64,000 nucleotides of DNA, from sequence record MT129654.1; one strand, given 5' to 3'. The notes below the pieces were generated by a model, which was not told where the DNA came from, searched no databases, and saw only the letters and a list, made by a program, of their open reading frames with translations. Positions within the stretch are counted from its first letter, which is position 1, and each line of letters begins with the position of its first letter. The translations under genes and the position numbers were made by a program. Of the stretch, positions 2,927 through 56,371 are shown one piece after another. Origin of the DNA: Escherichia phage MN04.

Positions 2927-4207
2927 TTATGCCTCGTAAATAATCGGAGGAAGTTTAACACCAAGCAGATAAGACATGTTACTCTGACCTGCCATTAAAT
3001 CCATATTAGTTGCGTCTATAACACGAGCTTCTTTATCATCTTTAGCAACGGTATATGGGTTTGCTGAAAGTGCATAACGAACCATCAGAGAAATAGCCGG
3101 TTGTAAACTATCAGGGTCTACAATAACTTTATACGCACCAACATGTTCTTGGTCGTCTAAATCCAGACCTTCGGTATACGGAGCATAGAAAATAGAACCA
3201 ACTACTTCATTACCGCCGTAATCTTCTTTAACGCCTACGATAACATAATCTAAAGGACTATTAACATCACAGAATACAGGCAATCCATTAATCAAATAAC
3301 CGTAAGCAGTTTCTGGGAGCCAAGCTTCATCTTCTGGTTTATGTTTCAACCAACCTGAACCAGCGAGCATAGCAGCAGCACGACTAGATGCGACAACAAA
3401 CGTACCTGAATAAGAAGTGGTTTTCTGAATTTCAGAATTCATCTCACAAACCATTTCATATAATTTACGTGCACTTTCTGGGGCGGAATTATAGGACAAA
3501 TCAATAATACCATTATCAGATACACCAGTTACTTTGTAACGTTTAGATACGGTAATCAAGGATTGTAGTACGTCTTTATTGATTTCATCAGCCATTACAG
3601 TGGCTAAAAGGTCTTCTAAGAACGCAGGGGCGTCGAAGCCATTGGATTCCATGTCTTGGGCTAGTTCTACAGTCAAAGCGGTTTTAAGTTTACGAGACTT
3701 AACAGGTGCGTTCCATTTATTAACCTGGAATACTGCATTACTAATTTCAACATCACCTGCTTCGAATTTCTCTGTGTGAGCCGCATCAGGAACCAGACGA
3801 CATGTTAATGACACCAAACCTTCTTGAAGGGCCTCAGCCAATTCTGTAGCGCTAGTGGATGCGAGTGGGCTTGCTTGAAGAGCCTTATAAACTATGTTCT
3901 GATACTTGAAATATTCACCCTTGGCAATAGCCTGGGCCTTATCTGTGAGTTCTGGGATAGTTTCACGGTCTTTAGAACCAACTTCACCGCCATAAACGGC
4001 ACCAGTTTGGAAGCTAAATTCATTATCAGGAGTAAGATATTTGACACCATACAATGCAGCAATAGGCTGGCTAGTACGTTGTTCAGCAATAATATCACGG
4101 TAAATCAATTTGGTTGTAGCACGGGTCAAAGCAACAAGATTAGGGCGACCCAATGAGTTGCTAGAAGTAGTTGTTGACTCGCGCAGTAATTCGTTAATCT
4201 TTGCCAT
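2927..4207 (-). CDS. gp24: Head vertex protein gp24
   Basis: 426 aa; MAKINELLRESTTT N-terminus and overall match to T4 gp24; adjacent to gp23. Confidence 0.85.
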   Translation of the reverse strand: MAKINELLRESTTTSSNSLGRPNLVALTRATTKLIYRDIIAEQRTSQPIAALYGVKYLTPDNEFSFQTGAVYGGEVGSKDRETIPELTDKAQAIAKGEYFKYQNIVYKALQASPLASTSATELAEALQEGLVSLTCRLVPDAAHTEKFEAGDVEISNAVFQVNKWNAPVKSRKLKTALTVELAQDMESNGFDAPAFLEDLLATVMADEINKDVLQSLITVSKRYKVTGVSDNGIIDLSYNSAPESARKLYEMVCEMNSEIQKTTSYSGTFVVASSRAAAMLAGSGWLKHKPEDEAWLPETAYGYLINGLPVFCDVNSPLDYVIVGVKEDYGGNEVVGSIFYAPYTEGLDLDDQEHVGAYKVIVDPDSLQPAISLMVRYALSANPYTVAKDDKEARVIDATNMDLMAGQSNMSYLLGVKLPPIIYEA

Positions 4208-4235
4208 TGCGCTTTCCTTATTGAGGGTATATGTT

Positions 4236-4243
4236 TATTTATA
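4236..4243 (-). promoter_or_regulatory. Late promoter TATAAATA for gp24
   Basis: TATAAATA on minus strand about 30 nt upstream of gp24 ATG (4207). Confidence 0.6.
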
Positions 4244-4249
4244 AAAGTT

Positions 4250-4290
4250 GTTTACAGCAAGGTTATCACATGTTACTATAGACCTATCAA
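4250..4290 (+). promoter_or_regulatory. Early promoter module (GTTTACA ... TACTATAGACCTATCAA)
   Basis: GTTTACA at 4250; conserved TATAGACCTATCAAAACA box shared with more than 8 other copies in window. Confidence 0.6.
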
Positions 4291-4308
4291 AACATGAGGA
4301 GATTAAAA

Positions 4309-4575
4309 ATGAACAAGTTAAACTTTATTCGTACTACTCTTTCCGCTCTTGATAAAGACATCAAAGCCCTGGTAGAAAAATATGGTTCCAATCCTAACGG
4401 TAATGCAGTGAATGCACTAGTTAAGAAATACGAAGCCATGGCTTATGCTACCGACTTCTGGTGGAACGGTGAATACTCTACCCATACCAAAGACAAATCT
4501 GGTAACTGGCTGAAAATCCAAGAAAATCGTATTGACTTCCGTGATATCATCAACCGTCGTGTTAAGATTGCATAG
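4309..4575 (+). CDS. Hypothetical 88 aa protein, early-promoter driven, inside the late capsid module
   Basis: ATG 4309 with GAGGAG RBS; track ORF 4294 is a 5-codon extension; flanked by promoter and terminator hairpin. Confidence 0.5.
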   Translation: MNKLNFIRTTLSALDKDIKALVEKYGSNPNGNAVNALVKKYEAMAYATDFWWNGEYSTHTKDKSGNWLKIQENRIDFRDIINRRVKIA

Positions 4576-4588
4576 TATAGAAACAAGA

Positions 4589-4610
4589 ATGGGAGACCGA
4601 AGTCTCCCAT
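4589..4610. terminator. Bidirectional terminator hairpin (ATGGGAGAC-CGAA-GTCTCCCAT)
   Basis: 9-bp stem between stop of ORF 4309-4575 and stop of gp23. Confidence 0.55.
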
Positions 4611-4623
4611 AATAAGGTTTATA

Positions 4624-6183
4624 TTAGATACCTTTAACATATACGCGACGGAAGTAACCATTCAGACCGAGGCTGTTAACGATGTCAGGCATACCATTCT
4701 GAATACGTTTGGTAGGTGCCTGAGCAGCTGGGTCAGCGAACGGGTTAATACCGATACCGTAACGAGTTTTGAAGCCCATTACCGGTTGGAAGTTCTTCGG
4801 ATCGGAACCACGCAGCGGAGTCAGCGCAACGTACGGAGCATAGTAGATACCTGCGTCCATTTCGTTGGAACCTTTATAACCGATGGTGAAGTAATCGGAA
4901 CGAGCATACTGGTCGATGTAAACACGATATTTACCACCAAGAACACCGGCAAATACTGCTTTGGTTGTGTCAACGTTGAAACCCTGACCCAGACCTTGAG
5001 CTGCATAACTTACAGAAGTATCAACTGCAGCCAGTACGTTAACTACGTTACGGGAAGCGATGATGAAGTTACCAGCACCACGACCGGTCTGACGAGCGAT
5101 TTCGGCTGCTTCTTTATCAATCTGGAACAGAAGGGCTTTAAAGCTCTCACCGGCCCAACGAGCACCACGGATATCAATCGGGTCCTGGAAGTCAAACACA
5201 CCAGCTTTAGCGCCAACGGTGTTGGTCATACCAGATTTACCAACCTGTGCAGAGTAGTTAATCCAATCGATAACTTCACGGTTGATTTCGAGCATAATTT
5301 CGGTAGCAAGGATACCGGACAGTTCAGCATCTGCATCCATACCGTGTACTGCACGAAGGTCCTGTGCCAGTTCGATAGAGTAGCTTGCTTTCAGCTGACG
5401 AGATTTAGCTTCGATAACTTGTTTGTCGATGCGGAAGCCCATTTCGTTCCACGGGTTATCGGTAGAACCGTTGAAACCTTCCTGAAGTTCGGCGATAGAA
5501 GTAGCCATACCTTCAGCGATTTCAGCCAGCTGACCAGCTTCAACCAGAGCGGTAACAGCAGCATCCAGTTTAGCGGCATCAGTAGCGCCTGCATCAACGG
5601 TTACAGCTTCAACAGCCTGGAAGTGTGCAGAACCGGTAGCTTCGAAGAAGTGAGAATAAATTTTACCAACTTCCAGAACTTTGCTTGCAGCCAGTGCTTC
5701 GAAAGTTTCAGCAGCACCCTGACCAGAGAACATAGCGTTCGGAGCATACATCGGATGGAAAGCTTCTTTAGCGCCTGCAGCGATAGGGTCTTTACCATAT
5801 ACTGCACGCAGTGCAAATACCTGACCGGTAGGGTTATTCAGAGGCTGAACACCACAAATATCAAAAGCAATCAGATGAGGAATAGCACGACGAACCATAC
5901 CCATTACTGCCGGCCCAATCTGAGTTACAGCACCAGAAGTCTGGCCAGCTGCGATATTGGTAGCATCATAACCGTGGTCACCACCAATTTCAGCTTCGGT
6001 CAGGAAAGAACCAAATGCTTCAGAGATTTTTTCATCACGGTATTCCGGGGCAGTCAGGATGTCTTGTTCCTGGTTTTCGAAAATTTTAGCGATGATAGCT
6101 TGTTTAGAAGCACCAACGATTTCAGGAAGAGCTTCGTTTTCCAGCAGAGCGGACCATTTTTGAACTAATGCATTCTTTTTCAT
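4624..6183 (-). CDS. gp23: Major capsid protein gp23
   Basis: 519 aa; N-terminal propeptide and body closely match T4 gp23. Confidence 0.95.
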   Translation of the reverse strand: MKKNALVQKWSALLENEALPEIVGASKQAIIAKIFENQEQDILTAPEYRDEKISEAFGSFLTEAEIGGDHGYDATNIAAGQTSGAVTQIGPAVMGMVRRAIPHLIAFDICGVQPLNNPTGQVFALRAVYGKDPIAAGAKEAFHPMYAPNAMFSGQGAAETFEALAASKVLEVGKIYSHFFEATGSAHFQAVEAVTVDAGATDAAKLDAAVTALVEAGQLAEIAEGMATSIAELQEGFNGSTDNPWNEMGFRIDKQVIEAKSRQLKASYSIELAQDLRAVHGMDADAELSGILATEIMLEINREVIDWINYSAQVGKSGMTNTVGAKAGVFDFQDPIDIRGARWAGESFKALLFQIDKEAAEIARQTGRGAGNFIIASRNVVNVLAAVDTSVSYAAQGLGQGFNVDTTKAVFAGVLGGKYRVYIDQYARSDYFTIGYKGSNEMDAGIYYAPYVALTPLRGSDPKNFQPVMGFKTRYGIGINPFADPAAQAPTKRIQNGMPDIVNSLGLNGYFRRVYVKGI

Positions 6184-49669: not shown

Positions 49670-49698
49670 GTTTACATCTCCTAGAATTGTGATAGTAT
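49670..49698 (+). promoter_or_regulatory. Early promoter (GTTTACA ... TAGTAT)
   Basis: GTTTACATCTCCT shared with promoter at 52196. Confidence 0.55.
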
Positions 49699-56290: not shown

Positions 56291-56295
56291 TCAAA

Positions 56296-56322
56296 GGTCT
56301 CACTTCGGTGGGACCTTTTTTC
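56296..56322 (+). terminator. Rho-independent terminator (GGTCTCAC-TTCG-GTGGGACC then TTTTTT)
   Basis: 8-bp stem plus T6 right after stop 56290. Confidence 0.65.
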
Positions 56323-56330
56323 GTTTTAGT

Positions 56331-56371
56331 GTTTACATCCTCTAGGAACGTGATACTATAGACCTATCAAC
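56331..56371 (+). promoter_or_regulatory. Early promoter module
   Basis: GTTTACA ... GTGATACTATAGACCTATCAACTA. Confidence 0.6.

Follow-up and report, generated by a model that had tools for sequence, protein, structure and literature searches.

A putative early-gene cassette between the capsid genes gp24 and gp23 of a Dhakavirus phage

Why does a small gene with an early-type promoter of its own stand between two capsid genes, on the strand opposite to both? The question is raised by positions 4250 to 4610 of a 64,000-nucleotide stretch of DNA from Escherichia phage MN04 (MT129654.1), which, at its full length, we call the window. From the letters of this DNA, the original prediction had read a late promoter for gp24, an early promoter followed by an 88-aa ORF, and a bidirectional hairpin, and had proposed that the gene could be a mobile cassette insertion or a regulator. 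Here, we examine what the gene is, which signals surround it, and what occupies the same site in other phages.

Results and discussion

Layout of the locus

The window belongs to a JS98-like Dhakavirus (T4-type; Straboviridae, Tevenvirinae), the genus of which JS98 is the type. Over 551 bp around the feature, the Escherichia phages EcWhh-1 and NC-G are 100% identical and JS98 is 99.8% identical. The genes follow each other in the order rnlB (+), gp24b (-), gp24a (-), small ORF (+), gp23 (-), gp22, gp21, gp68, gp67, and gp20. The tandem gp24 paralogues, 24b (1643-2926, -) and 24a (2927-4207, -), share 56% protein identity; the duplication is also seen in two metagenomic T4-like contigs and in the annotations of JS98, IME08, and VR26, and gp24 is single in Mosigvirus and T4.

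All elements listed in the original prediction were found where it had placed them when positions 4208-4623 were read directly. The features are as follows:

2927..4207, minus strand: gp24a, head vertex gene, left flank of the slot (paralogue 24b at 1643-2926)
4236..4243, minus strand: T4-type late promoter of gp24a, TATAAATA, outside the cassette
4244..4580, plus strand: approximate extent of the indel cassette (early promoter, Shine-Dalgarno, and ORF), from comparison with the empty site of T2 and KP179
4250..4279, plus strand: predicted sigma-70 / T4-early-type promoter, from motif scan, conservation, and consensus
4296..4301, plus strand: Shine-Dalgarno GAGGAG, 7 nt before ATG 4309; left recombination junction in LF82-1
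4309..4575, plus strand: 88-aa ORF, JS98 orf173, phrog_6003, with its TAG stop at 4573-4575
4579..4610, minus strand: gp23 intrinsic terminator, stem 4610..4589, C(UUCG)G tetraloop, tail UUCUUGUUUC at 4588..4579
4624..6183, minus strand: gp23, major capsid gene, right flank of the slot, with its stop codon at 4624-4626

One distance had been misread. The “86-nt gp24-gp23 gap” of the original prediction is the distance from the start of gp24a (4207) to an upstream in-frame ATG at 4294, and the two capsid genes are in fact 416 nt apart (4208-4623). As this ATG overlaps the Shine-Dalgarno sequence, would be only about 8 nt away from the predicted 5' end of the transcript, and lacks conservation among relatives, we place the start of the ORF at 4309.

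The ORF is a conserved and patchily distributed gene

The ORF at 4309-4575 corresponds to JS98 orf173 (EpJS98_0173), which is annotated as “hypothetical protein” and whose product is 100% identical. It matched phrog_6003 with E = 4.2e-50, residues 1-88 aligning to profile positions 1-88 of 90; PHROGs labels this family “unknown function”, and divergent relatives of the ORF match it as well. Homologues, annotated as hypothetical, were found by tblastn in about 237 phage records, with identities of ~90-100% in Dhakavirus, ~63-67% in Gaprivervirus (the VR phages), and ~35-39% in Mosigvirus (RB69-like). In all cases examined, the homologues of T-even phages lay between gp24 and gp23 on the opposite strand. 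Across four phage groups, homologues that are 30-97% identical keep a constant length, and dN/dS (Nei-Gojobori) was 0.13-0.17 for close pairs and 0.13-0.34 for distant pairs, in which dS is saturated. As judged from these comparisons, the alignments show a real coding gene under purifying selection. The claim of an 88-aa ORF with a GAGGAG ribosome-binding site was borne out, with the Shine-Dalgarno sequence 7 nt upstream of the start.

The gene is not intact everywhere. In RB69, ORF188c and ORF189c (RB69ORF188c and RB69ORF189c; NC_004928, locus L008 9292-9532) are frameshifted pieces of it, unlike JS09 and O157 typing phage 6, in which it is intact; the RB69 copy is either a pseudogene or the product of indel errors in an old sequence. 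Truncated versions of 41-64 aa exist in other phages (P0007, P0014, P0015, and P0022). Since the gene is absent from T4, T2, and Jiaodavirus, frameshifted in RB69, and truncated elsewhere, it is dispensable and patchy in its occurrence, a pattern typical of T-even early accessory genes.

The encoded protein is small and basic (10.2 kDa, pI 9.6), and a pI of 9.5-9.8 was found in 7 of 8 divergent members that share only 30-40% identity. An AlphaFold (AF2) model, made from an 11-sequence alignment, reached a pLDDT of 83.6 and contains helices at residues 3-25, 31-48, and 77-87, with an irregular segment at 49-76. Invariant residues are found in the loop between the first 2 helices (N30-G31-N32-x-x-N35), along with F6, W51, and Q71.

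Searches for relatives of assigned function returned little. In Pfam, nothing scored above cutoff, the only entry being DUF5380 at E = 0.1, and no GIY-YIG or HNH nuclease domain was detected in the protein. NCBIfam gave noise only, PDB sequence profiles gave no meaningful match (best E at least 0.13), a Foldseek comparison of the model against the PDB gave no informative fold (E at least 2), and BFVD contained one family member only. An exhaustive profile search of 1.84 billion representatives yielded 10 matches, the non-phage ones among them being artefacts, and a scan of IMG/VR returned known isolates only. In the literature on RB69ORF188c, orf173, and phrog_6003, nothing on function was found.

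Several apparent relatives or origins were discarded. Two long repeat proteins (P0017 and P0020) turned out on inspection to be spurious, repeat-driven matches, and a 160-aa metagenomic protein (P0021) was judged to be a spurious, chimeric ORF. In the latter, a segment of about 30 residues, almost identical to positions 34-63 of the protein, is fused to unrelated sequence, and it is probably an assembly chimera. The possibility of a degenerate endonuclease fragment was rejected, as BLASTP found no similarity to SegD of T4, IME08, or LF82-1, and a foreign base composition was rejected as well (GC 0.397 for the ORF, 0.398 for the window). Separately, a clear family member in a T4-like contig (P0013) carries in one source the label “NADPH-dependent curcumin reductase CurA”, which is evidently wrong.

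Further homologues were detected in the rV5-like Acinetobacter phage ABPH49 and in 2 contigs, where the gene stands in a long array of small same-strand genes (L013) or after a gene for a large protein with GpJ-type tail-fibre domains (L012). The neighbours of these 3 homologues are neither capsid genes nor endonucleases. Promoter-like sites lie 50-60 nt upstream of the L012 and L013 homologues, in counts not above chance.

Because the net positive charge is conserved, binding of nucleic acid or of an acidic partner can be guessed at. With low confidence, the protein may serve as a small effector early in infection, with nucleic acid or an acidic protein of the host or of a competitor as its target, and, as tentatively, it may act in host takeover, anti-defence, or inter-phage competition. 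In broader terms, a dispensable early factor directed at the host or at a competitor is the role that we predict as most likely.

Back-to-back late and early promoters

The late box of gp24a reads TATTTATA on the plus strand at 4236-4243, that is, TATAAATA on the minus strand, and sits 29 nt upstream of the gp24a ATG (4207). In the window, TATAAATA occurs 17 times against 6.9 expected, and within the late-gene region at 4-18 kb it lies on the minus strand in every case. The minus-strand late promoter claimed for gp24 is thus present, with its box at 4243..4236.

On the plus strand, a candidate early promoter consists of a -35 element GTTTACA (4250-4256), a 17-nt spacer, an extended -10 TG (4271-4272), and a -10 element TACTAT (4274-4279), with a predicted transcription start at about 4286. 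A scan of 3900-4900 found exactly one promoter-like site, TTTACA-17-TACTAT with TG on the plus strand. The pattern GTTTAC-N16-18-TAnnAT has 12 matches in the 64-kb window, against 0.76 expected, all 12 on the plus strand, and most of them share the form (A/G)TG(A/T)TA(C/T)TAT; as one of these 12, the site at 4250 falls into the early-promoter class of this phage. It also fits TTTACW-N17-TAYWAT, the early promoter consensus of the T4 group (PMC4122927). A middle (MotA) promoter was rejected on inspection of the sequence, as no TGCTT box is found at -30.

Conservation of these signals was assessed in an alignment of the gp24-proximal intergenic region of ten phages (JS98-like, IME08, VR26, JS09, O157 typing phage 6, LF82-1, RB69, T4, and two metagenomic T4-like contigs). 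The late box was invariant in all ten. Across Dhaka-, Gapriver-, Mosig-, and Tequatrovirus, the -35, TG, and -10 elements were conserved but the spacer had diverged freely, and a GGAG-type Shine-Dalgarno sequence was conserved 7-8 nt before the ATG. Conserved elements around a diverged spacer are the signature of functional signals. The plus-strand early promoter module of the original prediction is therefore backed by motif statistics and cross-genus conservation, as well as by analogy with T4 segD (see below), and early expression of the small gene is supported by these sequence features and that analogy.

The gp24 late box ends 6 nt from the early -35 element (4236-4256). As a result, this A/T-rich box stands where an UP element of the early promoter would be expected (about -38 to -46), and the divergent late and early promoters may interact.

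The hairpin is the terminator of gp23

Positions 4589-4610 form a perfect 9-bp stem, ATGGGAGAC-CGAA-GTCTCCCAT. Its folding energies on the two strands are -15.2 and -14.8 kcal/mol, the latter being that of the plus strand, with z about -4.3 for both. On the gp23 strand, the hairpin has a UUCG loop with a C-G closing pair and is followed by the tail UUCUUGUUUC; on the ORF strand, it is followed by UAAUAAGG, which contains no U-tract. The features of a rho-independent terminator are thus complete for gp23 on the minus strand and incomplete for the small gene on the plus strand, where the U-tract is absent. A scan of 3900-4900 found exactly one terminator-like site; it lies at 4610..4589 of the minus strand, and its tail reads TCTTGTTTCT. 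Of the “bidirectional hairpin” that had been proposed, the hairpin itself stands, being strong on both strands; termination in both directions finds no such backing, as a U-tract occurs just on the minus strand.

The end of gp23 in T4 has the same arrangement, with AGGGAACC-UUCG-GGUUCCCU followed by UUUUUUC, and it recurs in T2, KP179, JS09, and metagenomic contigs. When T4, T2, KP179, and VR26 are compared, inner stem pairs differ yet stay complementary, and 7 of 8 cases retain the UUCG loop. Hairpins of the C(UUCG)G type were reportedly described in T4 intercistronic regions by Tuerk and colleagues in 1988. Because the hairpin is also present in phages in which the site is empty, we assign it to gp23 as its terminator and place it outside the cassette.

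The slot between gp24 and gp23 holds variable cargo

According to the original prediction, T4 has no gene at this place. This was incorrect: segD, which encodes a GIY-YIG homing endonuclease (106561-107232), lies between genes 23 and 24 of T4, antisense to both, in an orientation unique among T4 endonuclease genes (PMC2988022). A promoter specific to segD could not be found according to that review (PMC2988022; 2010). Upstream of T4 segD, we identified TATTTAT-AAAGTT-ATTTACA-N17-TATTAT with TG, the same module as in the window, and in a scan this site was top-ranked on its strand (10 of 12 positions, with TG; NC_000866, L007 3282..3254). Time-resolved omics of T4 place segD among early RNAs and middle proteins (PMC9697503, supplement), and its early-RNA class fits an active early promoter in front of segD. 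The annotated T4 SegD begins with MFKMKYLIY, and SegD of IME08 and LF82-1 (MNYLIY...) aligns from M4 of the T4 protein (L007 3221-3233), which suggests that the true start of T4 segD may be the second ATG.

In other phages, the slot carries nothing. In T2 and the Jiaodavirus KP179, in both of which it was read, its 83 nt comprise just the late box and the terminator hairpin; no -35/-10 module and no ORF were found there. Judged by span length, the short slot is widespread, occurring in most Tequatroviruses, Kosakonia Kc304, Serratia X20, Salmonella STP4-a, and others. The cargo thus ranges from promoter and ORF in phages of the JS98, VR, and RB69 types, through promoter and segD in T4, to promoter, ORF, and segD in IME08 and LF82-1. 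As promoter and ORF are both absent from empty sites, they behave as a single unit of insertion or deletion, which spans about 4244-4580, from the late box to the U-tail of the gp23 terminator. The late box remains in the empty alleles and is therefore not part of the cassette.

A link with segD is seen in IME08, a Dhakavirus, and in LF82-1, where segD follows the ORF stop at a distance of 3 nt and extends almost to the conserved hairpin, encoding a protein 56-57% identical to T4 SegD. A junction probe detected the ORF-segD junction in 38 records. In about 48 JS98-type records, homology to the probe breaks 7-10 nt before the ORF stop, and the window itself carries a segD-less allele.

LF82-1 is a mosaic. 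Its gp24 and gp23 are 92-100% identical to those of the Mosigvirus JS09, and its sequence from the Shine-Dalgarno through the ORF and about 530 bp of segD is 91-99% identical to that of the Dhakavirus IME08, whose flanks are only 53-94% (typically 60-90%) identical to those of LF82-1. The left switch from JS09-type to JS98-type sequence lies inside the GAGGAG Shine-Dalgarno. From this mosaic, the ORF and segD are read as a unit exchanged between genera; on the sequence comparison, they moved from a Dhakavirus-like donor into a Mosigvirus backbone. The segD gene of LF82-1 is itself a mosaic (L006 3501-4500): identity to IME08 drops to about 64% over its last ~130 bp and the spacer that follows, and the C-terminal peptide of its SegD looks closer to that of T4, by which a third parental allele would be implied.

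The suggestion of a mobile cassette insertion gains support from the 83-nt empty sites, the variable cargo, and the cross-genus transfer of ORF and segD into LF82-1. The refuting case named in the original prediction, an orthologue with a known role at this site in T4 and its relatives, does not arise: T4 has no orthologue of the small gene, and the orthologues of its relatives carry no assigned function.

Proposed explanation and alternatives

We consider it probable that the feature is a self-contained early-gene cassette for a dispensable accessory protein, and that the stretch of the capsid module from the gp23 terminator to the gp24 late promoter is a hot-spot for insertions. At 4250-4279, transcription would be started by the unmodified sigma-70 RNA polymerase of the host in the first minutes after infection, and the resulting mRNA, of some 300 nt by prediction, would be translated from GAGGAG/ATG-4309 into the basic, helical 88-aa protein. 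This early transcript would meet the gp23 terminator hairpin backwards and might be stabilised or partly stopped there, no U-tract being present in that direction. As the cassette points away from gp24 and lies outside both late transcription units, it should leave capsid gene expression undisturbed.

Alternatively, the ORF could be mainly a passenger or target of segD homing, maintained and spread by its place next to the segD insertion point (and possibly by holding or abutting the SegD cleavage site) and co-converted with segD during double-strand-break repair, without benefit to the phage. The 3-nt distance between ORF stop and segD in IME08 and LF82-1, the 38 junction records, the break between segD-bearing and segD-less alleles about 7-10 nt before the stop, the joint gain of both genes by the Mosigvirus backbone of LF82-1, and the orthologous promoter in front of T4 segD all speak for such a role. 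We nevertheless regard it as unlikely, as about 200 of the 237 ORF-bearing genomes have no segD, a dN/dS of 0.13-0.17 indicates selection on the protein, the rV5-like and other-phage homologues have no endonuclease next to them, and the ORF shows no similarity to SegD. In addition, T4 SegD is said, by Sokolov and colleagues in 2018, not to drive the homing of its own gene.

A more specific possibility, which we rate as quite improbable, is that the basic 88-aa protein is an unrecognised effector of early infection, blocking for instance a host defence or a co-infecting phage, and that its mini-cassette, promoter included, passes from one T-even genus to another as a hitch-hiker of segD homing. 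If so, the gp23/gp24 slot would be an exchange site for small accessory genes inside the capsid core.

The “regulator” of the original prediction, for which the analysis yielded no support, can be framed as an RNA: transcription reading through into the 3' part of gp23 would yield an antisense transcript that delays or tunes the major capsid protein. Early “anti-late” RNA is a known phenomenon in T4, and read-through is conceivable here, since the scan for terminators reported no U-tract except on the minus strand and the plus-strand tail reads UAAUAAGGUUUAUA. Against this, purifying selection acts on the protein sequence, the cargo of the slot varies (segD, ORF, both, or none) while gp23 is conserved, and on the plus strand, too, the hairpin has high stability (-14.8 kcal/mol). 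Most T-even genera moreover have no promoter in the slot, so gp23 needs no such antisense control. An RNA product is accordingly very unlikely.

Barely plausible is a role in head assembly, as a chaperone or minor capsid factor. The gene is read from the opposite strand, its promoter is of the early and not of the late type, T4 and T2 lack it, RB69 has a frameshifted copy, and its homologues in other phages lie away from capsid genes. Its position between two capsid genes would suit this role, as would its co-occurrence with duplicated gp24 in Dhaka- and Gaprivervirus, but it is also present in Mosigvirus, where gp24 is single. Finally, a chance open frame without expression, conceivable given the many spurious 40-110-aa ORFs of this AT-rich sequence, is effectively refuted by the conservation alignment (30-97% identity at constant length in four phage groups) and a dN/dS well below 1, with the conserved Shine-Dalgarno and promoter and the confidently predicted fold further against it.

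Significance

The early-gene cassette that we favour is an already annotated hypothetical gene of an ordinary kind, and no unusual mechanism is indicated by the analysis. Two points are added. Judging from the shared module, a conserved early (sigma-70) promoter appears to serve the segD slot of T4, and, from the mosaic alleles, the ORF and segD have clearly been exchanged across genera within the capsid core. The capsid module, the most conserved block of T4-type phages, has a defined plastic site, with the gp23 terminator on one side and the gp24 late promoter on the other. This slot is of use to phage engineering, as a neutral and self-expressed site of insertion, and it helps to understand how neighbouring genes are dragged from genus to genus by homing endonucleases. 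The selectively maintained, predicted-early protein is a reasonable candidate for host-takeover and anti-defence screens.

Comparison with known systems

By homology, the window ORF is a direct member of the family formed by phrog_6003, JS98 orf173, and RB69 ORF188c and ORF189c, of which the RB69 copy is frameshifted.

The gp23 hairpin resembles the terminator of T4 gene 23 in its GC-rich stem, UUCG loop, U-tract on the gp23 strand, and compensatory stem changes. It differs in that the hairpin of the window also stands at the 3' end of a convergent early gene.

PeSL and ORFan cassettes of T4-type phages were described by Arbiol et al. 2010 (PMC2839356) and Comeau et al. 2014 (PMC4122927). As in those cassettes, a strong sigma-70-type early promoter (TTTACW-N17-TAYWAT) precedes a small, non-essential, variable ORFan in a unit bounded by a stem-loop, and the LF82-1 junction, which falls within a regulatory motif, at the Shine-Dalgarno downstream of the -10 box and upstream of the start codon, resembles PeSL crossovers (PMC2839356). 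Unlike them, the window has no plus-strand stem-loop upstream of the promoter, in 4208-4250, where the late promoter TATAAATA is found instead; its sole stem-loop follows the ORF and has the make-up of a terminator acting on the other strand. The cassette is also placed inside the conserved capsid core, in antisense, rather than in a hyperplastic region. A canonical PeSL does occur elsewhere in the window, at 56293-56359 (+), with a stem-loop terminator AAAGGTCTCAC-TTCG-GTGGGACCTTT and T-run, followed after 13 nt by GTTTACA-N16-TACTAT. Early promoters with near-identical spacers (GTTTACATCTCC..TAGA..TGATACTAT) are found in the window also at 49670, 52196, and 61811, and are possible substrates for modular shuffling.

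The T4 segD locus shares with the window the slot, the antisense orientation to 23 and 24, the gp23 terminator hairpin downstream, and the back-to-back late and early module TATTTATA-AAAGTT-(G/A)TTTACA...TGnTAyTAT, and in IME08 and LF82-1 segD directly follows the small ORF. The cargo sets the two loci apart: the window has no segD, and in its place encodes an unrelated 88-aa protein without a GIY-YIG domain.
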